From a virus (Duplodnaviria > Heunggongvirae > Uroviricota > Caudoviricetes), in the IMG/VR virus record IMGVR_UViG_2844443253_000009: a stretch of 27,172 bases of DNA. The stretch is one strand, 5' to 3'. Position numbers and translations under genes: made by a program. The notes under the pieces were generated by a model. It worked only from the letters and a program-made list of their open reading frames with translations. It was not told the origin of the DNA and did not search any database. This document shows positions 2,783-27,172 of the stretch, one piece after another. The stretch's first letter is position 1; each line of letters opens with the position of its first letter.

Positions 2783-3348
2783 TTACTTAACGTCAAACGC
2801 CCGAATTGAAGCCAAATCATCCAGACTGCTCAGCTCCTCTTTCATCTCCCGCTGACGGCGATAAATCTCATCGTTGCGATCGACCTGCGCCTGCACCATT
2901 GCTGCCGCCAGTTCTTCCAGTTCCGGCATCGACAGTTTCACCTGCTGATTATCCGCATCACTCCACACCATATGTGTTTGTGCCGCGACAGATTTTGCCA
3001 GCATGACCACCGGGGACAGGCGGGCCACTGACGAGGCGTCAGCGTTCCACGTGCGGCCGTTCCATTCAAACGTGAACGGCTTCGCCTCCTGTTCTGTGCG
3101 CCATGCTTCAATTTCCTGACGTCTGGCCTCTCTGGCCGCTTCCAGCATTTCTGGTGTCACAGTGAATGGGGCTATCTCACCCCATTTGCCACTTTGCAGT
3201 TCCTGCCAGATTTGCTGACCCGTCGGTGCAACATCATCAGCGGTGGCTGTGTAGGGAACTGCCTGGTCCCTGTCGTCAAAAAAAAAACGTCACAGTCTAC
3301 TGCGCCACTTTCGGTATAACGGGGATTAATGATTTTTTTAATTTCCAC
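2783..3348 (-). pseudogene. Tail fibre assembly-like protein downstream of stf, frame broken in a T10 homopolymer
   Basis: Two ORF pieces (3172..3408 and 2783..3160) fuse into one ~188-aa protein (MEIKKIINPRYTESGAVDCDVFF / DDRDQAVPYTATADDVAPTGQQIWQ...IRAFDVK) if the minus-strand T10 run at 3278-3287 were T11 or T8. Probable GTG start at 3348 with a GAGGAA RBS. Position immediately after stf supports a tfa-like role; the family assignment itself is tentative. Confidence 0.55.
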
Positions 3349-3358
3349 GGTGCATTCC

Positions 3359-3712
3359 TCACGATGTGCGAATAAAAAGCCCGGGCATTGCGCCAGAGAC
3401 ATGAGCATCCGGCACCCCGGACAGGGCGCAATATGACCCTGGTAATGAATGCTCTGAACATCCCGTAATGAAAAATTGTGGGGATGCTATATACGTTCCG
3501 GTGGGAGTACCGGGCACTGAAATCCCCACCGGTCCCAGTCGTGAGCCTCTGTATGACTGCCCCCTGACAAGTCTGATGACTTTATCACCGTCAGCTTCTC
3601 CCTGGTACGCAGCAATAATCAGCCCGCCAATGTCAGGGTCTCCCCATCTGTTGCGGACAGAGCTCGCCACGATTCTGTAAATAATATCTTCTGTGGTTAT
3701 ATTTATTTTCAC
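3359..3712 (-). CDS. Hypothetical protein between stf and the tfa-like gene
   Basis: 117-aa ORF whose ATG overlaps the stf stop (ATGA). The first ~50 aa look protein-like; the C-terminal half is Gly/Pro/Ser-rich and may be an out-of-frame read. No family recognised. Confidence 0.3.
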   Translation of the reverse strand: MKINITTEDIIYRIVASSVRNRWGDPDIGGLIIAAYQGEADGDKVIRLVRGQSYRGSRLGPVGISVPGTPTGTYIASPQFFITGCSEHSLPGSYCALSGVPDAHVSGAMPGLFIRTS

Positions 3713-4770
3713 CCAGTCAGTCTGGATATGGGCCAGTAGCGGTAGCGGGTGTGATAAATGGGGCCGTTAATGCCGTAAAAAGTAAGGGATTTGGCTCTGT
3801 ACCGCGGTTCTGTTGTCTCAGGGCGTGCATCAGTCCACCGGATGCTGAGCACCCCTTCAAACCGTGTGTCGGGTATGATGATGCCGTAGGGGCCAGCAAC
3901 GGAATATTCACCTGGCAGCGCATTCCTTACCCAGGCCAGGAAATCACTCTTAGTGTCAAAACGGATAACATCTTCAGGCAGAAAAGCACACCCAAAGCCG
4001 AATGCGCCGGGTATCGCCAGACGGCCTTTTGTCCGGTCGTAAATGTCGCTCTGTGCTTCCATCGTGGCCGCACTTTTCAGCCCCAGATTATCCCGGGACT
4101 TCTGTTGTGCCTTTTCGCCTGCTGCTGCGATTTCTGACAGATGGTTAGCCATTTTCAGAGTGCCGGTCAGCGCAGCATCAATGTCATTTTTGGCCTGTTC
4201 TGCTGCGCGGGCATAACCTGCGGCATCCTGTGCGCTCTGTCCGGCTGCGGCTGCATTTGCTCCTGTGCTTGTCACATCTTCCGCAGTGGCCTTTCTGTCC
4301 TCAGCTGTGACGGTTGCATCCTGTCGGGCTTTCTCCGCAAAACGTTGTGCATCATCACGGGCCGTTGCGGCTGCCGCCACATCCTGCGCCGTCTGCTGTG
4401 CGTTTCCGGCTGCAGCCCCGGCACTCTGCTGCGCCTGCGCCACCATTTCCTCAAAGCGCTTCATCACCTCCGGACGTAAATCACCATCCTTTGGTGCATT
4501 CAGAAACGCGTTCAGTGTCCCCGGTGCATCAGTCGGTGCCACATCAATATCCCCGACACGGGTTGGCTGCCAGCCGTTACAGTGAAGCGCAACCTCGTAA
4601 TACCCCGGCTCAGCCTCAATCACATAAGCACCGTTATTGTCCGTCACGCAAGTGGCAACAACGTGTGCCACAACGGTCGGACTGGTTCTTCTGGCCCGCA
4701 GTTCAATCGCACAATTTACGACAGGTTTACCCGCCCCATCTTTCAGTACACCTGAAATCTTTACTGCCAT
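3709..4770 (-). CDS. stf: Side tail fibre protein (lambda Stf-like N-terminus, Ala-rich shaft, distinct C-terminal domain)
   Basis: N-terminus MAVKISGVLKDGAGKPV matches lambda Stf (MAVKISGVLKDGTGKPV). Start taken at ATG 4770, preceded by a GGGGTG RBS; the ORF track extends 14 codons further upstream. Lies after lom as in lambda. At 353 aa it is much shorter than lambda Stf. Confidence 0.85.
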   Translation of the reverse strand: MAVKISGVLKDGAGKPVVNCAIELRARRTSPTVVAHVVATCVTDNNGAYVIEAEPGYYEVALHCNGWQPTRVGDIDVAPTDAPGTLNAFLNAPKDGDLRPEVMKRFEEMVAQAQQSAGAAAGNAQQTAQDVAAAATARDDAQRFAEKARQDATVTAEDRKATAEDVTSTGANAAAAGQSAQDAAGYARAAEQAKNDIDAALTGTLKMANHLSEIAAAGEKAQQKSRDNLGLKSAATMEAQSDIYDRTKGRLAIPGAFGFGCAFLPEDVIRFDTKSDFLAWVRNALPGEYSVAGPYGIIIPDTRFEGVLSIRWTDARPETTEPRYRAKSLTFYGINGPIYHTRYRYWPISRLTG

Positions 4771-5500: not shown

Positions 5501-8500
5501 TCAGCTGATACTGATACCTGCTGTGGATTTCTTCATCACAACAACCAGCAAATCGCTGATACTTGCTGTGGGATACCAGCCATTTACCAGCCATGCCGAT
5601 ACAGAAAACTCCAGCGTCATGTGACCGTGACCGGCAGGCATATCAATAACACCCGTATATATCAGCGTATTATCCAGGGTCGTTCGGTTATAAATTTCAG
5701 CACCGTTTTTCTTCACTATCAGGCGGCATGACGAATAAATATTGTTATTCTTCCGCTCATGTTTAGCACCGCGAAACGCCACCGCGGGAATAACAAGTTT
5801 GCCCACTGTTTTAACGAGATCGCCTTCAATCTGGTTCGCGGACAATTTTCCCAGAACCCGACAGTTCTTATTAATCGTGACGTTGTTGAGCGTCCCGGAG
5901 TTCGCGTTCACGTTACCGCTGATATCGGCATTTTTCGCCGTCAGCCGTCCGCCAGGTGTCAGGGAAAATGCCGGAGGATTACCGCCGCTGGTAATGGTCG
6001 GAGCCGTCAGGCGTTTCAGGAACACGTCGTTCATGAATATCTGATCGCCCTGACCAACAAACATCGGCTTTGTGTTGCCATTCGCAGGATTAACCATCGC
6101 AATCCTGTCTGCCGCCAGCAGCACCTGACTCTGCATTCCTGCTGGCGTATTCTCAATACCGGCACCGATACCCGCAATATAAAGGCGTCCGTCCTTCATC
6201 TGTTGCAGCTTCACAGCCCACATGCTGTTCAGGTTATTATTTGTATCAACCTGAACTTTCTGTATCTGCTGGATTGCAGCACTCTGATTTTCCAGTTTTT
6301 TATTGACGGTTTGCGTGATTTCATTGCTGACATTCGTAATGGACGTCCTGATTTCAGTCAGGTCCGGCGCAAGCTGACCGTTATCAATCTGCGTCCACAA
6401 CTCCTTGCCGAGATGCGTTTTATTGATCAACCCTTTATAAAAACTCAGATAACCTTCCGCATCATCGCTCGCCCGACCGACGGCCTCCACAAATGCCGAT
6501 TTGCCAACGGTGTTCACACTGCGAACGTAAAAATAATAATCATGGCCCGGCCTGATATTGATACTGGCGGCTATCCAGTACAGCGCCGTGCCAAGATAGC
6601 GGGCGCTGGTTTCAACCTGCCTGATATCCGCAATCCGCTTTTCCGAAAACCAGAACTCAAACTGCACCGTCGGGTCATATACAGCCAGTTTCGGGACCAC
6701 CGTTATCTGAAAATACCCCGGTATCAGTTCAATAGTGACAGGCGCTGCCGGTGCCGCAATCCGGAACGATACCGACGCCGGATCGCCCTGCTGCCCCCGG
6801 GCATTTACCGCCCGGACTGTCAGACTGTAATTCCCCAGCGCCAGCTGCCTGAAGCGGTATGTGGTTTCCGTCGTCCTGGCTGTGCTGACCAGCCGCTCAC
6901 TGCCGTCGTCCGCTGCCACGGTCAGGCGAAGCAGGAAGCTCACACCCTTCACCACCTTCGGCGTGTCCCATCGCGCCAGCACCTGATATTCCCCGCTGTC
7001 TGCGGTGACTTCGGCGGTCAGATGCTGCACCGCTGGCGGCGTGACACCATTCACCGTGCCGCGCCGGTCACCGTCAAAGTGTGCCCCGTTATCCACGATG
7101 GCCTCTTTTTCCGGCACATGCTGCACGGCGGTGATGGCATACGTGCCGTCGTCGTTCTCACGGATACTCACGCAGCGGAACAGGCGCTGGCGCAGCGTCG
7201 GCAGCTTCAGCCCCCACACGCTGTATTCTGCAACGCCGTCAGGAACCCGGCTCACTTTCACCTTCACGCCGTCGGTGACGGACTGAACCTCCACGCTGAC
7301 CGGATTGCCATTTCCGTCAACCAGGCTTATCAGCGTGGTACCGGAGGACGGCAGCGTGATTTCACGGTCGAGCGTCAGCGTCCGGGTCTGGCTGTTCACC
7401 GCCAGTACGCGACCACCGGTGCTGATACCGGCATAATCATCATCGCAGATTTCAATGACATCACCCGGTACATGGCGAAGCCCTTCTGCGCCGACGCTGA
7501 AGTCCACGGTCTGCGTTTCCAGCAGTTCCGTTTTAATCAGCCACAGCCCGGCGCGGTGCGCCTGTCCCCGGCTGGTACAGCCAAAGGCATCCATCTTCGT
7601 GACGTTACGACCGTAACGGACAATGGCCTGCGTGTCCTCCACAAGCTCTGTCGCCGTCTCATGACCGTTGTCCGGATCAATCCAGTTCACCTCAACGACA
7701 TTATGGCGGTCCTTCAGGGCGCTGAAGCTGTAGCGGAACGGCGCGCCATCATCCGGCATCACCACATTACTGCGGTTATAGGTCCACACTTTATCCGACG
7801 GTCGGTCCTGCACGAACGTCAGCGTCTGCCCGTTCCATACCGGCATACAGCGCATCGCCGAGCAGAAATCACTGAGAACATCCCACGCCTTACGCTGTGT
7901 GGTCAGGTAAGCGTTACAGGTGATGCGCGGCTCCGTGCCGCCAAATCCGTCCGGCACTGACTGGTCGCAGTACTGGCCGATGACATACAGCGCCCATTTG
8001 TCCACATCTGCCGCACCAAGACGTTTCCCCATGCCGTAGCGCGGATGAGTGAGCATGTCCCACAGACACCAGGCCATGTTGTTGCTGTATGCTGGCTTAA
8101 GCGTTCCGTCCCAGATACCGCTGTATTGCCGCGTCTGCGGGTTATAGTTCGACGGCACCTGCAGAATGCGCCCGCGAAGATGATAATTGCGACTCACCTG
8201 CTGGTTACCGAACTGCTCTGAATCCACCTGCACGCCGACCAGCGCCGTGTTCGGGTAGCACTGTTTCACATCGATGATTTCGGTGTACGACGACCAGAGC
8301 GTTTTGTTCTGCAGCTGGTCTGTGGTGCTGTCCGGTGTCATCCTGCGCATCCGGATATTAAACGGGCGCGGCGGCAGGTTACCCACCACCACCGAGGCCA
8401 GATACTGCGAAGTGGTTTTGCCCTTAATGGTGATGTCTTTTTCCGTCACCCAGCCACCGTTACGCTGTATCTGAACCAGCAGGCGGACTTCCGACGGATT

Positions 8501-8890
8501 CCGGTCCCCCTTTGAGGTGGTTTCCACCAGTGCCTGCACACCGAAGGTCAGGCGCAGACGATCAATGTTTGCCGACGTGATGGTCCGGGTGATCGGCGTG
8601 TCGTATTTCACTTCCGTACCCAGCACAGTCTCTGAGCCGGAAGATTCAAACCCCTCCGGCGGTGTCTGCTCCTGCTCGCCGGCGCGGAACACCACCGTAA
8701 CACCGGAAAAGTTTGTCTTCCCCTCGCTATCCAGGACCGGCGTACCGTTCAGCAGCACGCTTTTTAATCCATCCACCGGACCGTCAACCGGCCCTTCGCT
8801 GATGGCATCAATCACACTCAGCAACTGCGTGGATTTCAGGTTGTCCTTCGCTTCGCGCGGGGTATGCCCCTTACTGCTGCCTTTACCCAT
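5501..8890 (-). CDS. J: Tail tip / host specificity protein J
   Basis: 1129 aa. N-terminus [34 protein letters not shown] and most of the length are near-identical to lambda J as remembered; the C-terminal ~250 aa diverge from lambda. Confidence 0.97.
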
Positions 8891-20217: not shown

Positions 20218-20907
20218 TTAATCTACTTTTGCAATACTTTGCTTTGAAAATGCCGCTTTTTGTTCTGAACGTGTTCTCATCACAAACAATAAAGCCTCAC
20301 TATCCAGTCGGTGAAAAATGTGTTTCATTACAACCCAGTGACCAGTAAATGTTTTGGACCAGTTTTTGGTTGTTACTCCCGCCAGTAATGCCAGCTCCTG
20401 ATATTCATAACCTTCCCCACCAAAAAGTTCTGCTTTTACCGCCTGCGCCGCCAGCCAGATTAATTTTTTCAGGCGTTCCTGTGTTTTCTCTGCAATTTTC
20501 CTAGTGCCAGAATGAGCCTTAAACTCTTCCCACGCCCAGTGGGTTATGGTGATCTGATACTCCCAGCAAATACTTCCGCTGTAACACCACAACAACCAGG
20601 CTTTATAGTGCTCTTCAAGAGACAGAACAGCCCGCCGCCACGATGATGTCGAAAACGCAACCTGACTGACCAGAGGAATTGACGCCCCCTTCGCCAGTGA
20701 TTGTTTTCCCGGGATTGGTGGATTATCCCGCGTTATCATTTTTCCGGTCACCTCATCGCGGTACCGGATTTTTTTACGCCTGTAACGCCCTGTATCGAAC
20801 ATGGCATTCTCCTGCCAGGCTTCAAGCTGACCTTTTGTCGCCCCACTCAAATCAGCGGTGGCGATAATGAGCTGCTCACGAACAAACTGTAAATACTGGT
20901 TATTCAT
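20218..20907 (-). CDS. Putative late-gene antiterminator (Q-like), called from synteny
   Basis: 229 aa (MNNQYLQFVREQ...). ATG at 20907 overlaps the rusA stop (ATGA). It lies between rusA and the tRNA cluster, where Q sits in 82/933W-type lambdoid phages. No confident sequence-level match recalled. Confidence 0.45.
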   Translation of the reverse strand: MNNQYLQFVREQLIIATADLSGATKGQLEAWQENAMFDTGRYRRKKIRYRDEVTGKMITRDNPPIPGKQSLAKGASIPLVSQVAFSTSSWRRAVLSLEEHYKAWLLWCYSGSICWEYQITITHWAWEEFKAHSGTRKIAEKTQERLKKLIWLAAQAVKAELFGGEGYEYQELALLAGVTTKNWSKTFTGHWVVMKHIFHRLDSEALLFVMRTRSEQKAAFSKQSIAKVD

Positions 20908-21263
20908 GCACACTCCAGCTCTGTGATTTTTATCCCCAACCGACCACCAGGAACAGGCAGTCCGCGCACAATATTGGTTTCATCAAACTGCTCGTCGTCG
21001 ATAAGCAACCCCGCATGTGTCAGTGCATCCAGTGGTGCTTTCAGGATATTGTCCAGGTCACGACGCCGCTTATCCGGTGGCTCTGCAATAATCTTTATCG
21101 CCAGTCTTCCGGACAGGCTTAATTTCAGTCGCTGCTGACGGACAATAAGCGCCACATCCCGGCGATAACGCTCACCGGCTTTTGATACAAAATATGTGCT
21201 GCCACGACGTCGCCAGTAAGTATTCACCGTCGGCGGATAAGGTAAAATAAACTCATGGCGCAT
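20904..21263 (-). CDS. rusA: Holliday junction resolvase RusA
   Basis: 119 aa. YPPTVNTYWRRRG...DKRRRDLDNILKAPLDALTHAGLLIDDEQ...GGRLGIKITE matches the RusA family (E. coli RusA: PWPPSNNRYYRH...[29 protein letters not shown]...GGRLELTITE). Confidence 0.9.
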   Translation of the reverse strand: MRHEFILPYPPTVNTYWRRRGSTYFVSKAGERYRRDVALIVRQQRLKLSLSGRLAIKIIAEPPDKRRRDLDNILKAPLDALTHAGLLIDDEQFDETNIVRGLPVPGGRLGIKITELECA

Positions 21264-21400: not shown

Positions 21401-21466
21401 ATTGAGGTAGCCTGAGTTTAACGGACACTCCTTCCTGAAATAGAATGGCATCAGAAGGAGCCAATA

Positions 21467-21769
21467 ATGAGCAGAAAAACCCAACGTTACTCTAAATAGT
21501 TCAAAGCCGAAGCTGTCAGAACGGTTCTTGAAAATCAACTTTCGATCAGTGAAGGCGCTTCCCGATTATCCCTTCCTGAAGGCACTTTAGGACAATGGGT
21601 TACCGCCGCCAGAAAAGGGCTCGGTACTCCTGGTTCCCGCACGGTGGCTGAACTGGAATCTGAAATTCTGCAACTGCGTAAGGCGTTAAATGAAGCTCGC
21701 CTTGAGCGAGATATATTAAAAAAAGCAACAGCGTATTTTGCACAGGAGTCGCTGAAAAATACGCGTTAA
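21467..21769 (+). pseudogene. IS600 orfA with an in-frame amber stop at codon 11
   Basis: Translation reads MSRKTQRYSK-stop(TAG at 21497-21499)-FKAEAVRTVLENQLSISEGASRLSLPEGTLGQWVTAARKGLGTPGSRTVAELESEILQLRKALNEARLERDILKKATAYFAQESLKNTR. Intact IS600 OrfA has Glu at this codon (GAG to TAG). Confidence 0.8.
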
Positions 21770-21804
21770 TCGAACAATGGCGACAACAATTTCCCATTGA
21801 AGCG

Positions 21805-22623
21805 ATGTGTCAGGTATTTGGTGTATCCAGGAGCGGTTATTACAACTGGGTACAGCATGAACCCTCAGACAGAAAACAAAGTGATGAGCGGCTAAAACTG
21901 GAGATTAAGGTGGCACATATCCGCACTCGCGAAACATATGGAACCCGGCGGCTCCAGACGGAGCTGGCAGAGAATGGCATCATCGTTGGTCGTGACCGAC
22001 TGGCACGTCTTCGTAAGGAGCTGAGGCTACGCTGTAAGCAGAAACGCAAGTTCAGAGCGACTACGAACCCGAACCACAATCTGCCAGTTGCGCCAAATCT
22101 GCTGAACCAGACGTTCGCTCCTACAGCACCAAATCAGGTCTGGGTGGCGGACCTGACGTATGTTGCCACACAGGAGGGATGGTTGTACCTCGCTGGCATC
22201 AAAGATGTTTATACGTGTGAAATTGTCGGCTACGCCATGGGAGAGCGCATGACAAAAGAGCTGACAGGTAAAGCCCTGTTTATGGCGCTCAGGAGCCAGC
22301 GCCCACCTGCCGGGCTAATCCACCACTCTGATCGAGGTTCACAGTACTGCGCATACGATTACCGGGTCATACAGGAGCAGTTTGGTCTGAAAACATCAAT
22401 GTCGCGTAAAGGTAACTGTTACGACAACGCTCCGATGGAAAGCTTCTGGGGAACGCTGAAAAATGAGAGCCTGAGCCACTATCGTTTTAATAACCGGGAT
22501 GAAGCCATCTCAGTAATACGGGAATACATTGAGATTTTCTACAATCGTCAGCGTCGTCACTCTCGTCTGGGGAATATCTCCCCGGCAGCCTTCAGGGAAA
22601 AATATCATCAGATGGCTGCTTAA
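21805..22623 (+). CDS. IS600 orfB (DDE integrase core; normally made as an OrfAB fusion by -1 frameshift)
   Basis: 272 aa with an rve-type catalytic core (VWVADLTYV ... HSDRGSQY ... NCYDNAPMESFWGTLK). Frame is -1 relative to orfA. Confidence 0.9.
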   Translation: MCQVFGVSRSGYYNWVQHEPSDRKQSDERLKLEIKVAHIRTRETYGTRRLQTELAENGIIVGRDRLARLRKELRLRCKQKRKFRATTNPNHNLPVAPNLLNQTFAPTAPNQVWVADLTYVATQEGWLYLAGIKDVYTCEIVGYAMGERMTKELTGKALFMALRSQRPPAGLIHHSDRGSQYCAYDYRVIQEQFGLKTSMSRKGNCYDNAPMESFWGTLKNESLSHYRFNNRDEAISVIREYIEIFYNRQRRHSRLGNISPAAFREKYHQMAA

Positions 22624-22665
22624 AAAAGAACAAATGGTAGTGTCCGCTATTGCCAGTACACCTCA

Positions 22666-22875
22666 CAACGCCATCCTGACAAGCGTTTTATCTTCAACGG
22701 GAATGAGATATGGAAACGTGGAGAATCAACCACAGAGTATACCCGCGCACACCAGCGAACAATCAGACGACTGCGCAGACTCATCGCCAGGAAACAGTAT
22801 ACAGAAAAATGGTTCAGAAAATATGACACATGGAGCGCCGGATATTACGAACTGATGGCAACAAAACCATTCTGA
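22666..22875 (+). other. 5'-truncated ORF remnant starting at the IS600 right boundary
   Basis: The open frame begins at the IS boundary and has no start codon: QRHPDKRFIFNGNEIWKRGESTTEYTRAHQRTIRRLRRLIARKQYTEKWFRKYDTWSAGYYELMATKPF-stop. It is protein-like but no family is recognised. Confidence 0.3.
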
Positions 22876-22935
22876 CGTAAACGAAATTAACCATGACGCA
22901 ATTAAATAAGGCAAGCCGAATACATCAGGAGGACC

Positions 22936-23124
22936 ATGAACATTTATTTCAGAATAGTTATATCACTGGCAATTATCGCATGTATTTACGGATTAATCGT
23001 TCCGGCCCTCATATCAATGAAGGATACGGTAGCAGTGATTTCTGGCTTTGCTCTGGCGTGTCTGACCCCGCCCTGCATTTATGCCATTTATAAGGGTCTT
23101 TCTTTTTCTAAGGATAAAAGATGA
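22936..23124 (+). CDS. Small membrane protein (62 aa, two predicted transmembrane helices)
   Basis: Strong RBS (AGGAGGACC) before the ATG. Two hydrophobic segments (IVISLAIIACIYGLIVPALI and VAVISGFALACLTPPCIYAIY). Stop overlaps the start of the next gene (ATGA). Confidence 0.6.
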   Translation: MNIYFRIVISLAIIACIYGLIVPALISMKDTVAVISGFALACLTPPCIYAIYKGLSFSKDKR

Positions 23125-23948
23125 AAAAAGTTATTCCTGCTTTAGCCCTTGTTCTGCTGACCACCGGACTTGTCGGTTGCGATCGCGTTGAGCCTGGTAA
23201 TGTTGGCATCAAGGTAAACAAACTGGGCGACGATAAAGGCGTCGGAGAAGTGGTCGGTGTTGGGCGCTACTGGACGGGATGGAACACTGAGGTTTACATC
23301 TTCCCGACCTTCAAACAAATGAAGACCTACGATGAGCCATTCAGCTTCCAGATGAGTGACGGTACAACCATCGGCTATCACATCGGCGTGGCCTACAAAG
23401 TTGATCCATCCAAAGTTACCACAGTCTTTCAGACCTACCGCAAAGGCGTGGACGACATTACCGACACCGACCTGCGCCAGAAGATAGCCGACGCACTCAA
23501 CCGACTGGCCAGCAAAATGACCACCGACAAATTTATCGACGGCGGCAAGTCTGAGCTGCTGGATGCAGCTCTTAAAGACATTCAGGAAGAAATGACGCCC
23601 ATCGGTATTCAGGTAATGAGCCTCTCATATGTGGGTAAGCCGGAGTACCCGCCTACTGTTATCGACAGCATTAATGCCAAAGTCACGGCGAACCAGAAAA
23701 CCCTGCAATGCGAGCAGGAAGTAAAACAGCGCGAAGCGGAAGCCAACATGTTGCGCGCGGAAGCTGCCGGACAGGCAGATGCGATTCGCACAAAAGCCCA
23801 GGCCGAAGCCGATGCTATTCGTTTACGCGGTGAAGCTCTGCGCCAGAACCCAAACGTTATGGAGCTGGAAGCCATCAACAAGTGGAACGGTACACTGCCG
23901 CAATACATGACCAGCGGTGCCAACACACCATTTATTCAGGTTAAGTAA
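23121..23948 (+). CDS. SPFH/band-7 (prohibitin/HflC-like) domain lipoprotein
   Basis: 275 aa. Lipoprotein signal peptide with lipobox LVGC (MKKVIPALALVLLTTGLVGCD). Central band-7-like region and a C-terminal Ala/Glu-rich coiled coil (QREAEANMLRAEAAGQADAIRTKAQAEADAIRLRGEALRQ). Confidence 0.8.
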   Translation: MKKVIPALALVLLTTGLVGCDRVEPGNVGIKVNKLGDDKGVGEVVGVGRYWTGWNTEVYIFPTFKQMKTYDEPFSFQMSDGTTIGYHIGVAYKVDPSKVTTVFQTYRKGVDDITDTDLRQKIADALNRLASKMTTDKFIDGGKSELLDAALKDIQEEMTPIGIQVMSLSYVGKPEYPPTVIDSINAKVTANQKTLQCEQEVKQREAEANMLRAEAAGQADAIRTKAQAEADAIRLRGEALRQNPNVMELEAINKWNGTLPQYMTSGANTPFIQVK

Positions 23949-23991
23949 TACATATGCCCGGTATTACACGCCGGGCTGTCTGGAGATAAAA

Positions 23992-24741
23992 ATGAATACT
24001 GTAACCATCAACAACAAACAGTTTCCGGTAATCGAATATCGCGGTCAGCGTGTTGTGACGCTGGCGATGATTGATGAAGTCCACCAGCGACCGGAAGGAA
24101 CCGCGCGTGCAGCATTCAACCGAAACCGTGAGCATTTCATCAGCGGTGTGGATTATGCCGAATTAGGTGCGGACGTAATACGTACGGACCTCCCGGAAGG
24201 AACATTCTCTAAATTTGCACCATCGGGGATTGTACTTTTTGAATCAGGTTACCTGATGTTGACGAAGCCATTCAATGACGCCCTTGCCTGGCAGGTTCAG
24301 CGCGAACTGGTTAACAGCTACTTCCGCACTCGCACACCGCTAACGGAAATCGAGATGATCGCTGCGATAGCCGCCGACGCTGTTCGTCAACAGAAGCGCC
24401 TGAATCATGTGGAAGAACAGCTCGAAACAGTCACAGAAGCGGTGGAAACCATCAAACGCGGAAATATGCGCGCCGGATATGTCGGTTACCGCCAGGTGGT
24501 AGCCAAAAGTGGAATGAGTGACACCAAGTGTCGGAATCTGGTGAACGCATATCAAATTCCTACAGACACCCACGAATTCATGACTCCGGACGGTCTGTTG
24601 TCTCGCAGGGCTATCGTCGAGCTTGAGCCATTTATGGCGGCGTTCCACCAAATGATGTCAGAGGCTGACCCACGCGGCACACGCTGGTATCACCCGAAGA
24701 TGGGGCTTTTCCAGGTGATCGGATGGGAGGATAAAGCATGA
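23992..24741 (+). CDS. Phage antirepressor-like protein (ORF6N N-domain, ORF6C-like C-domain)
   Basis: Start at MNTVTINNKQFPVIEYRGQRVVTLAMIDEVHQRPEGTARAAFNRNREHFISGVDY, the characteristic ORF6N (KilA-N-like) signature. RBS GGAGA. The ORF track starts 25 codons upstream. Confidence 0.7.
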   Translation: MNTVTINNKQFPVIEYRGQRVVTLAMIDEVHQRPEGTARAAFNRNREHFISGVDYAELGADVIRTDLPEGTFSKFAPSGIVLFESGYLMLTKPFNDALAWQVQRELVNSYFRTRTPLTEIEMIAAIAADAVRQQKRLNHVEEQLETVTEAVETIKRGNMRAGYVGYRQVVAKSGMSDTKCRNLVNAYQIPTDTHEFMTPDGLLSRRAIVELEPFMAAFHQMMSEADPRGTRWYHPKMGLFQVIGWEDKA

Positions 24742-25307
24742 TCATCCAGTCAAAACTTATTCGCGCCGCTCTGGTGTGCGCTGCTAAAAACGACGTTCGT
24801 TATTACCTGAACGGTCTTCACATCACGCCGAAACATATTGAGGCAACCAATGGTTCCGTGGCACTGCGCATGGCTCACGGCATCCGGACGAAGAAAAACA
24901 TCATTGTCCAGTTCGAAGGGGGCGTCCCGGCCAAAGCCGAAACGACAGAGCTGATTTTTAGTAAAGAGCCGATCGCTGTTCATCGCGACCAGTTTCAGCG
25001 ACGACTGTCCATTACCGGCATTAAACTGGTGGACGGTTGTTTTCCGGATTTGGATCGCATCATTCCGAAAAAGTTTGACCGCTGTACTCACCCGGTGCTC
25101 CAGGCGGGTTACCTGAGTTATCCAGAGAAGATGTTTGGTCGTGAGCGTAAATTTATTCCCGTCCAGTTACGTCCCTCCGGTGACGGGCAAGCGGTCAGAA
25201 TTCAGTTTGATTCCATCATCAACTCAATGTATGGCAATCCTGAATTTGTTGTGATGCCTTGTCGTGATCATGGCGATTTCAACGTGGCTCAGGAGCATCC
25301 GGAATGA
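24738..25307 (+). CDS. Truncated DNA polymerase III beta sliding-clamp (DnaN) homolog, about half length
   Basis: 189 aa. Aligns to E. coli DnaN domains II-III as remembered: DVRYYLNGLHI...IEATNGSVALRM vs DVRYYLNGMLF...TVATDGHRLAV; IAVHRDQF...KLVDGCFPDLDRIIPKKFD vs IRAHVGDF...KLVDGRFPDYRRVLPKNPD; EFVVMPCR vs AAYVVMPMRL. Strong RBS (GGGAGG); ATGA overlap with the upstream gene. Confidence 0.7.
   Translation: MIIQSKLIRAALVCAAKNDVRYYLNGLHITPKHIEATNGSVALRMAHGIRTKKNIIVQFEGGVPAKAETTELIFSKEPIAVHRDQFQRRLSITGIKLVDGCFPDLDRIIPKKFDRCTHPVLQAGYLSYPEKMFGRERKFIPVQLRPSGDGQAVRIQFDSIINSMYGNPEFVVMPCRDHGDFNVAQEHPE

Positions 25308-26003: not shown

Positions 26004-27172
<1,169 letters not shown>

Follow-up and report, generated by a model that had tools for sequence, protein, structure and literature searches.

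What does a tailed phage do with two overlapping genes, one for a small two-helix membrane protein and the other for an SPFH (Band 7) lipoprotein? We take up this question for a gene pair in the IMG/VR record IMGVR_UViG_2844443253_000009 (Duplodnaviria; Heunggongvirae; Uroviricota; Caudoviricetes), analyzed here as a single stretch of 27,172 nucleotides that we call the window. SPFH scaffolds such as HflK/C, prohibitin, stomatin and flotillin are now structurally understood as membrane cages, and Band 7 proteins are frequent among phages and giant viruses in BFVD. Phage papers call the function of phage SPFH proteins unclear (PMC13239085, PMC7760394), and our full-text literature searches found no functional study of phage SPFH lipoproteins, or of the pair. 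Both proteins are already present in databases under generic names. Relatives go by no more than ‘lipoprotein’, ‘serine protease’ or ‘HflC/HflK family inner membrane lipoprotein’ in their records; the ‘serine protease’ label has apparently been carried over between annotation records. Here, we identify the pair as a copy of the gp19/gp20 module of phage N4 and propose that the module is a two-subunit membrane scaffold, an overall explanation to which we give about an even chance. What we consider new is the obligatory hairpin partner and the signature that marks it, the lipobox-bearing fusions, the periplasmic topology of the lipoprotein and the identification of the pair with N4 gp19/gp20. 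The phage version of the SPFH scaffold thereby receives a defined anatomy, with a lipid anchor, a periplasm-facing domain and an obligatory hairpin partner of 60–70 residues that no curated domain library describes, and an orthologue in the genetically tractable phage N4 makes its function directly testable.

Identity and structure of the gene pair

The elements of the pair in the window are as follows.

22927..22932, plus strand: Shine-Dalgarno sequence AGGAGG of the small open reading frame (ORF), 3 nt 5' of the ATG at 22936; read from the sequence
22936..23124, plus strand: small ORF, encoding a 62-aa two-helix predicted inner-membrane protein (N4 gp19 family, PHROG 1130)
23002..23046, plus strand: hairpin-turn motif P23-A-L-I-S-M-K-D-T-V-A-V-I-S-G37 of the small protein; conserved columns, predicted to face the periplasm
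23121..23124, plus strand: ATGA, in which the stop codon of the small ORF overlaps the start codon of the SPFH ORF; read from the sequence
23121..23948, plus strand: SPFH (Band 7) lipoprotein ORF, 275 aa (N4 gp20 family, PHROG 200)
23121..23183, plus strand: lipoprotein signal peptide (residues 1–19) and lipobox L17-V18-G19-C20, with Asp21 at +2; read from the sequence
23184..23744, plus strand: SPFH/Band 7 domain, residues 22–208; Pfam envelope and AlphaFold2 model
23652..23846, plus strand: long Ala/Glu/Arg-rich helix, residues 178–242, counterpart of the CC1 wall helix in SPFH cages; AlphaFold2 model
23868..23945, plus strand: conserved C-terminal tail E-A-I-N-K-W-N-G-T-L-P...P-F; 52-sequence alignment

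Both ORFs are exactly as a preliminary description of this DNA had given them, and the SPFH ORF starts within the codon that ends the small ORF (ATGA, a 4-nt overlap), an arrangement that probably couples their translation. Judged by sequence comparison with diverged copies, both genes are under purifying selection, with ratios of non-synonymous to synonymous substitution rates of 0.17–0.34 for the small ORF and 0.03–0.08 for the SPFH ORF.

The pair belongs, by its sequence, to the N4 module (PHROG 1130 plus PHROG 200). The SPFH protein is 63% identical to N4 gp20 (‘lipoprotein’) over residues 2–275 (E 1.6e-130), and gp20 is preceded by gp19 (‘membrane protein’, 68 aa) in the same order as in the window. 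The two copies share the lipobox, the C-terminal KWNG-LP motif and the overlap of the genes; unlike the window copy, that of N4 lies in the middle-gene block of a virulent phage and has Tyr rather than Asp after the lipobox Cys. BcepF1.001/.002, Moo19 gp30/gp31, P88 gp11/gp12 and phiP27 L05 represent the same module, and for none of these copies, nor for that of N4, did we find a published function.

The N-terminus of the SPFH protein reads MKK-VIPALALVLLTTG-LVGC and comprises a basic n-region, a hydrophobic core and a canonical lipobox, whose Cys20 is encoded at 23178–23180 and followed directly by Asp21. The lipobox Cys is retained in 144 of 153 distant homologues and in every one of 29 fused proteins described below, with A, G or S at the position before it in 135. 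Within the enterobacterial clade, at least 90 of 120 clusters read G-C-D at this site. According to the Lol-avoidance rule of E. coli, Asp at +2 holds a lipoprotein in the inner membrane; retention there is thus a firm prediction for the enterobacterial copies of the SPFH lipoprotein, and for those only. As a side observation, 13 of the 120 enterobacterial clusters have Tyr in place of the lipobox Cys (G-Y-D), and single clusters have Trp or Phe (proteins P0102–P0116, for example P0107, on contigs of ~110 kb, the size of plasmids). From their sequences, these variants could not be lipidated and would keep an uncleaved N-terminal anchor. Clades lacking the Cys (the 13 G-Y-D clusters, Sutterella and Novosphingobium) do keep a hydrophobic N-terminal anchor, and the conserved trait therefore appears to be the anchoring of a periplasmic SPFH domain.

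The band-7-like core and the long charged coiled coil of the preliminary description are likewise borne out, as is its lipobox. Pfam Band_7 (PF01145) matches residues 22–208 with E 6.3e-31 and 108.2 bits against a cut-off of 23.6, and the protein matches phrog_200 (‘lipoprotein’) with E 6.4e-114. An AlphaFold2 model of the monomer, built from a 52-sequence alignment, has a mean predicted local distance difference test score (pLDDT) of 80.7 and consists of a beta-rich SPFH1 (strands within 20–94) and an alpha/beta SPFH2 (96–175), both mostly at pLDDT 75–93, followed by one continuous 65-residue helix (178–242, pLDDT 81–92); in alignments this helix falls on the coiled coils of HflK/C, prohibitin and erlin. 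The nearest PDB entries by sequence profile are QmcA (E 3e-7), prohibitin-2 (2e-6) and HflK (2e-5). With Foldseek, the best match is HflK/HflC (7vhq, E 9e-14), then prohibitin, erlin, stomatin, QmcA and flotillin; the matches cover essentially the whole chain at 14–20% identity, and those to HflK/C, prohibitin, erlin, stomatin and QmcA have E values of 1e-13 to 5e-8 at a probability of 1.00. All six of these protein types form rings or cages from an SPFH body, a wall helix and a C-terminal cap. In the tail of the window protein family (KWNG-LP...P-F), W255, P260 and P270 are invariant and G257 and L259 nearly so across 52 sequences with a mean identity of 35%. By analogy, the tail is probably a cap or oligomerization element; its low pLDDT in the monomer model would be expected of such an element, and its conservation is compatible with cage assembly without proving it.

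The small protein has hydrophobic stretches at about residues 7–26 and 32–52 and a basic tail, KGLSFSKDKR. It matches phrog_1130 (‘membrane protein’, E 6.6e-24), which PHROGs places in the category ‘moron, auxiliary metabolic gene and host takeover’. A hidden Markov model (HMM) of the small-protein family that we built scores the window protein at E 1e-27 and, with N4 gp19 left out of its seed, still matches gp19 at E 4e-14. The signature of the partner family can be written as helix-P-x-L-[IV]-S-x-x-[DS]-[TD]-x-x-V-x-x-G-helix, in which P23 and G37 are the only nearly invariant columns among 17 distant partners compared. ‘MISSDS-type’ variants occur as well, MNKKTWFRAYMW... in P88 and MQNNPNKCRTLW... 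in a P1-like phage. Neither the window protein nor 16 relatives belong to a Pfam family or match a T4-Imm-type protein, an NfeD hit is absent at E up to 1 from the window protein and from the 17 family members searched, and the family has no sequence match in the PDB. We accordingly rejected an identity as NfeD, for which there is no match to the OB-fold domain (PF01957) and for which 62 aa are too short, and an identity as a T4-Imm-type protein or holin, for which there is neither a Pfam family match nor a PDB match.

Linkage, fusions and topology

The preliminary description would have been refuted by a lack of co-occurrence of the two genes in other genomes; the outcome is decisively the opposite, and the linkage turned out to be very tight. 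In the first set of loci fetched, which are close relatives, the small ORF lies directly 5' of the SPFH gene in 85 of 85, with the 4-nt ATGA overlap in 83. The reverse search, starting from the small ORF, found the SPFH gene in all 79 evaluable loci. A distant set comprised 85 loci from species-representative genomes and metagenomic contigs, with SPFH identities of 32–50% except for the enterobacterial copies; here the family HMM detected the partner immediately upstream in 55 loci and fused to the SPFH protein in nine (64 of 85 in total), and inspection revealed divergent hairpin ORFs also in Sutterella, Sphingomonas, Caulobacterales and a cyanobacterium. Among 17 phage lineages the partner is directly upstream in 13 and within 0.5 kb in a further three (16 of 17 in all). 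The pair co-occurs in Enterobacterales prophages, in N4, in Burkholderia, Vibrio, Rhizobium and Pseudomonas phages and on bacterial chromosomes. The 4-nt overlap recurs in Alcaligenes prophages, BcepF1, P88, Rhizobium IG49 and Pseudomonas Pacha_bin_1, and gp19 and gp20 of N4 overlap by 8 nt. In a Novosphingobium/Qipengyuania clade, lipobox and partner are both missing and the SPFH protein has an N-terminal transmembrane helix of its own.

No third gene recurs with the pair. All-against-all clustering of the ORFs from 87 loci returned only the SPFH gene, antisense artefacts within it and clade-specific neighbours (such as an aldo-keto reductase, an SMC-like ATPase, a beta-lactamase-fold protein and MnmA), and we dropped the idea that a third conserved gene might reveal a client.

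The topology of the hairpin can be read from fused proteins. Among ~200 homologues inspected, 29 are single proteins of 320–400 aa that consist of the two-transmembrane hairpin module, a basic linker, a third hydrophobic helix, the lipobox Cys and the SPFH domain, and the hairpin-turn motif of the small protein recurs in them. Since the SPFH domain follows the lipobox, the third helix should cross from the cytoplasm to the periplasm; both ends of the hairpin would therefore be cytoplasmic and the conserved turn periplasmic, beside the lipid-anchored SPFH1. We infer the same topology, fixed by the fusions, for the separate protein, and the positive-inside charge distribution of the 62-aa protein in the window agrees with it. 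A fused protein from P1-like plasmids (P0002, 347 aa) was modelled with AlphaFold2 at a mean pLDDT of 82.8, with confident helices at 5–38, 43–70 and 74–89 before the SPFH body. This protein stands apart from the other 28 fusions, which come from distant taxa and are clearly independent. Compared with the two-gene form, it has one A fewer in the A7 run at the junction (L004; AATGAAAAAAACG), which may be a homopolymer sequencing error or real slippage. A programmed frameshift at the junction was rejected, given that the SPFH frame is +1 and not −1 relative to the small ORF and the A run of the window lies 3' of the stop codon. The fusion of Binataceae is chromosomal, lies among housekeeping genes and is present in several assemblies; on two contigs of metagenome-assembled genomes (L089 and L090) it is four genes from lgt, the gene for prolipoprotein diacylglyceryl transferase, in this one lineage only.

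Distribution and genomic position

A DNA-level search found the SPFH gene in 716 of 5,426 complete E. coli genomes, about half of the copies being chromosomal and half on plasmids, and in phiP27, phiP27-like Stx2 phages, the HK97-like Fraca, the P2-like P88 and P1-like phages. It is present in 630 plasmid records, of which 604 are non-mobilizable and 63 come from Yersinia; those sampled measure 61–439 kb, mostly 90–127 kb, and we read most of them as P1-like and SSU5/pMT1-like phage-plasmids. At the protein level, 491 GenBank phage records have an SPFH homologue, and most of these phages are virulent. Among the carriers are N4-like Schitoviridae, rV5-like Vequintavirinae, Erwinia Ounavirinae, Burkholderia BcepF1, PaP3-like Bruynoghevirus, Moo19, SSE121, phiCbK-like Caulobacter phages, jumbo phages, a crAss-like phage, Lak megaphages and haloarchaeal tailed viruses; the N4-like, rV5-like, BcepF1, Moo19, SSE121 and jumbo phages are virulent, and the temperate carriers are phiP27-, HK97-, P2-, P1- and SSU5/pMT1-like. 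The pair also occurs on bacterial chromosomes among housekeeping genes, with clade-wide synteny in Sphingomonas.

Within phage genomes the pair keeps to the early side. In phiP27, the prophage of E. coli E110019, Fraca and two Alcaligenes prophages, it lies 1.5–3 kb downstream of a CI-like repressor gene and co-oriented with it, in the block towards xis and int that these phiP27-, HK97- and Alcaligenes-type prophages have. P88 carries it within the P2-type cox-to-A early operon. N4 and Moo19 have it after the RNA polymerase II genes, a Hoc-like decoration gene and, directly before the pair, a gene annotated ‘superinfection exclusion, similar to P22 gp17’, and on large virulent-phage contigs it stands among replication and nucleotide-metabolism genes. 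Position thus points to early or middle lytic expression as the common denominator. A scan around the window pair called no sigma-70-like promoter and no plus-strand terminator. Eight nucleotides past the SPFH stop codon lies a GC-rich hairpin, GCCCGG-N9-CCGGGC (23956–23976), that lacks a T run and may be an RNA-stability or processing element. With the scan empty and the hairpin lacking its T run, a moron with its own promoter and terminator was rejected.

This position also bears on whether the pair could be a lysis device, in which the 62-aa protein acts like a class II holin or pinholin and the lipoprotein as its spanin-like or antiholin counterpart. With its size, its pair of transmembrane helices and its charged C-terminal tail, the 62-aa protein does recall small holins, and a membrane protein and a lipoprotein encoded by overlapping genes superficially resemble spanin pairs. 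However, an endolysin gene is never adjacent in the loci examined, and every annotated phage that we examined has the pair in an early gene block. By its SPFH fold the lipoprotein is no small o-spanin, no holin family is matched significantly (the best Pfam hit, at E 0.038, concerns one of 17 small-protein family members), and a lethal holin cannot be reconciled with the SPFH fusions or with chromosomal housekeeping contexts. We regard this explanation as highly improbable.

Comparison with known SPFH systems

HflK/C, whose SPFH domains are periplasmic and anchored in the inner membrane, are the best structural match and share the layout of SPFH1, SPFH2, long helix and C-terminal tail (HflK/HflC-FtsH of E. 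coli; PDB 7vhq, 7wi3, 9cz2). The SPFH protein of the window is predicted to sit at the same membrane and on the same side. Unlike HflK/C, which have an N-terminal transmembrane helix and comprise two SPFH paralogues, it is lipid-anchored and pairs a single SPFH gene with a 62-aa hairpin, and identity in the structural alignment is only 16–20%. Orthology to HflK or HflC was rejected on the NCBIfam scores: the protein reaches 23.9 bits against a cut-off of 134.4 for TIGR01932, 22.3 against 159.4 for TIGR01933 and 19.8 against 660 for NF008181.

The preliminary description had reasoned from HflK/C that the lipoprotein might modulate FtsH and, through it, the lysis-lysogeny decision. This proposal is only partly tenable; the likeness in fold holds, orthology does not. 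A mimic that binds or cages FtsH and so alters the turnover of lambda CII/CIII, sigma-32 or LpxC would account for HflK and HflC being the best structural matches and, weakly, the best NCBIfam matches, for the shared topology and for the several carriers that are temperate phages with CI-like repressors. Yet the NCBIfam scores lie far under the equivalog cut-offs, the structural-alignment identity is low, there is no K/C pair of SPFH genes, and ORF clustering of the loci found no ftsH-like gene that recurs beside the cellular homologues. The module is common in strictly virulent phages (N4, Moo19, SSE121, BcepF1 and jumbo phages) and occurs on chromosomes; because neither setting involves a lysis-lysogeny decision, a role through CII/CIII cannot be the general function. 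Mimicry of HflK/C that acts on FtsH we consider improbable.

SPFH genes are also paired with genes for small membrane proteins in other systems. QmcA is such a case, with an SPFH domain that faces the cytoplasm, whereas that of the window protein is predicted to be periplasmic and lipid-anchored. In the SPFH-NfeD operons (E. coli QmcA-YbbJ, PDB 8z5g; Pyrococcus PH1511-PH1510), a concept described earlier (PMC2636767), the two genes are likewise co-oriented, but the partner in our pair lacks an NfeD/OB-fold domain. For B. subtilis, two reports (PMC8581546, bioRxiv 10.64898/2026.02.06.704340) describe YdjG/YdjH-YdjI (SamG/SamH-SamI), a system linked to the handling of membrane stress in which an SPFH protein is brought to the membrane by small membrane proteins. 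Small membrane proteins thus accompany an SPFH protein in both cases, a likeness by description for which we claim no sequence relationship; YdjI, unlike the predicted periplasmic SPFH protein of the window, is cytosolic and works with PspA.

A different kind of comparison is offered by PM0222 of Pasteurella multocida (GenBank OAZ06802.1), a prophage-encoded HflK/C-like protein of 25–35 kDa that is found in outer-membrane vesicles, signals through Toll-like receptors 1/2 (TLR1/2) and whose deletion attenuates virulence (PMC9872710). It resembles the window protein, by description, in being a prophage HflK/C-like protein, and TLR1/2 agonism is expected of a triacylated lipoprotein; homology is unverified. 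By this analogy the SPFH protein could be a lysogenic-conversion or virulence lipoprotein that lysogens produce and deliver to their outer membrane or to vesicles, with the animal host as its target, and the gene is indeed common in prophages of pathogenic E. coli and Shigella, in Stx2 phages and on Y. pestis pMT1-type plasmids. Set against this, Asp at +2 predicts inner-membrane retention of the enterobacterial copies, the system is bound to the inner membrane by its obligatory alpha-helical two-transmembrane partner and by the fusions, and virulent environmental phages and free-living bacteria carry it too. We think a virulence function very improbable.

A proposed membrane scaffold and a possible exclusion device

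We consider the architecture of the module the more secure part of our proposal: it is probably a lipid-anchored SPFH cage on the periplasmic face of the inner membrane with the hairpin as its integral-membrane subunit. The 275-aa protein would be exported, lipid-modified at Cys20 and retained on the periplasmic face. Through its long helix and C-terminal tail it would form rings or cages, each enclosing a patch of membrane, by analogy with HflK/C, prohibitin and erlin, which it matches in fold over its whole length. The 62-aa hairpin, whose sole conserved soluble element is the short periplasmic turn, would supply the transmembrane part that the lipoprotein lacks, and the ATGA overlap would set a fixed proportion of the two subunits. 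What the cage is for we propose tentatively. Of the roles considered we favour one in which the pair, made from early or middle lytic operons, would stabilize or insulate the infected cell's inner membrane up to the time of programmed lysis, and this could also hinder the entry of competing phages or the action of membrane-damaging defences. We favour a role in the lytic cycle because the pair is present in virulent phages.

Exclusion as the dedicated purpose is the other role raised in the preliminary description, and a membrane-based exclusion or protection role is possible. Here, cage and hairpin would block the DNA of an incoming phage at the inner membrane, for example by covering or sequestering entry factors, and would in function resemble T4 Imm and Sp. 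The predicted location on the periplasmic face of the inner membrane would suit such a device, as would the early expression that its position suggests, the PHROG category of the small protein, the gene annotated as superinfection exclusion next to the pair in N4 and Moo19 and the behaviour of the pair as an accessory set across many unrelated phage backbones. However, that adjacency is limited to N4-like phages and rests on annotation, and the chromosomal housekeeping copies (the Binataceae fusion near lgt and the clade-wide synteny in Sphingomonas) point to a cell-intrinsic function. The small protein, the SPFH protein and their two downstream neighbours have no match in PADLOC-DB 2.0 at E up to 0.01, and a known anti-phage defence system was rejected on this result. 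We judge dedicated exclusion unlikely. A bolder version, also unlikely, is that a nanocage encloses the phage's own DNA-entry site or host inner-membrane proteins and makes the cell refractory to superinfection and to membrane-sensing or membrane-damaging defences, with the fused homologues being polytopic precursors that signal peptidase II cuts at an internal lipobox. If true, this would be a new and very widespread class of phage exclusion or anti-defence device.

Several points weigh against the scaffold proposal or limit it. We found no experiment on any family member in the literature, and our data fit membrane maintenance, exclusion and protease control alike. The analysis shows the gene structure, the fold, the lipobox, how the two genes are conserved, linked and fused, and their placement in early gene blocks. 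The AlphaFold2 models are of monomers, and we infer the oligomeric cage and the contact between the two proteins, as we do lipidation, inner-membrane location and biological role. Outside the enterobacterial clade the +2 residue is mostly Ser or Thr, and under E. coli rules such homologues would sort to the outer membrane; PM0222, which by analogy may be comparable (its family membership is unverified), is located in outer-membrane vesicles. The partner is 150–450 nt away in PaP3-like, SSE121 and Ea_Tu10 phages, and CcrSwift, one of the 17 phage lineages, has no detectable partner. Finally, the copy in the window, although intact, is separated from its native upstream operon by an insertion sequence (IS), IS600, which makes its expression uncertain.

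The window copy and its surroundings

The remaining features of the window are listed below.

5501-8890, minus strand: lambdoid tail gene J
12127-14337, minus strand: tape measure gene
17836-19032: transposase gene
20218-20913, minus strand: Q antiterminator gene
20904-21263, minus strand: RusA gene
21403..22665, plus strand: IS600 (IS3 family), complete, 1263 bp, with 27-nt imperfect terminal inverted repeats at 21403-21429 and 22639-22665
22665..22855, plus strand: 3' remnant of an upstream early gene cut by IS600; 94.5% identity to the E110019 prophage
23992-24741, plus strand: ORF6N anti-repressor-like gene (Pfam E 2e-12; phrog_1726 E 1e-69)
24738-25307, plus strand: 189-aa ORF, two genes downstream of the pair (phrog_3007, labelled RusA-like, E 6e-65)
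26004-27172: a further IS transposase gene

Prophage pieces and IS elements alternate in the window, as is typical of degraded prophage regions of the Shigella-like kind, and for this copy itself the practical meaning of our findings is modest: it is intact but lies in an IS-ridden prophage remnant. The name IS600 comes from the annotation of E. coli copies that are 99% identical. From 22665 onward the window is homologous, at 94.5% identity, to the intact prophage of E110019, in which the upstream early gene measures 393 nt and ends 60 nt 5' of the small ORF. The window pair begins 270 nt downstream of IS600. The pair, the ORF6N gene and the 189-aa gene make up a phiP27-like early-left region of ~3 kb on the plus strand.

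The ORF6N gene directly follows the pair in the window, the E110019 prophage and Fraca and not in P88, the P1-like phage or N4, and is therefore lineage-specific and outside the module. The 189-aa ORF has weak beta-clamp matches (Pfam DNA polymerase III beta clamp, E 0.007; NCBIfam dnaN, 1e-4; phrog_947, 2e-4) and may, going by these, be a half-size clamp-like protein; the gene is frameshifted in the E110019 prophage. An antisense ORF of 105 aa (23609-23926, minus strand) lies within the region that encodes the coiled coil, and similar antisense ORFs are found in 46–62 related loci; we read this as a by-product of the Ala/Glu/Arg-rich sense strand and not as evidence of a gene.

The region recurs at 99.8–99.97% identity in Shigella flexneri SFBU1023 and E. 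coli ECMA0423. In both (loci L091 and L092, positions 3212–3991), a 780-bp insertion with a 9-bp duplication sits exactly between the two genes, at the equivalent of window positions 23112–23120, and its size fits that of IS1, which we name as a candidate only.

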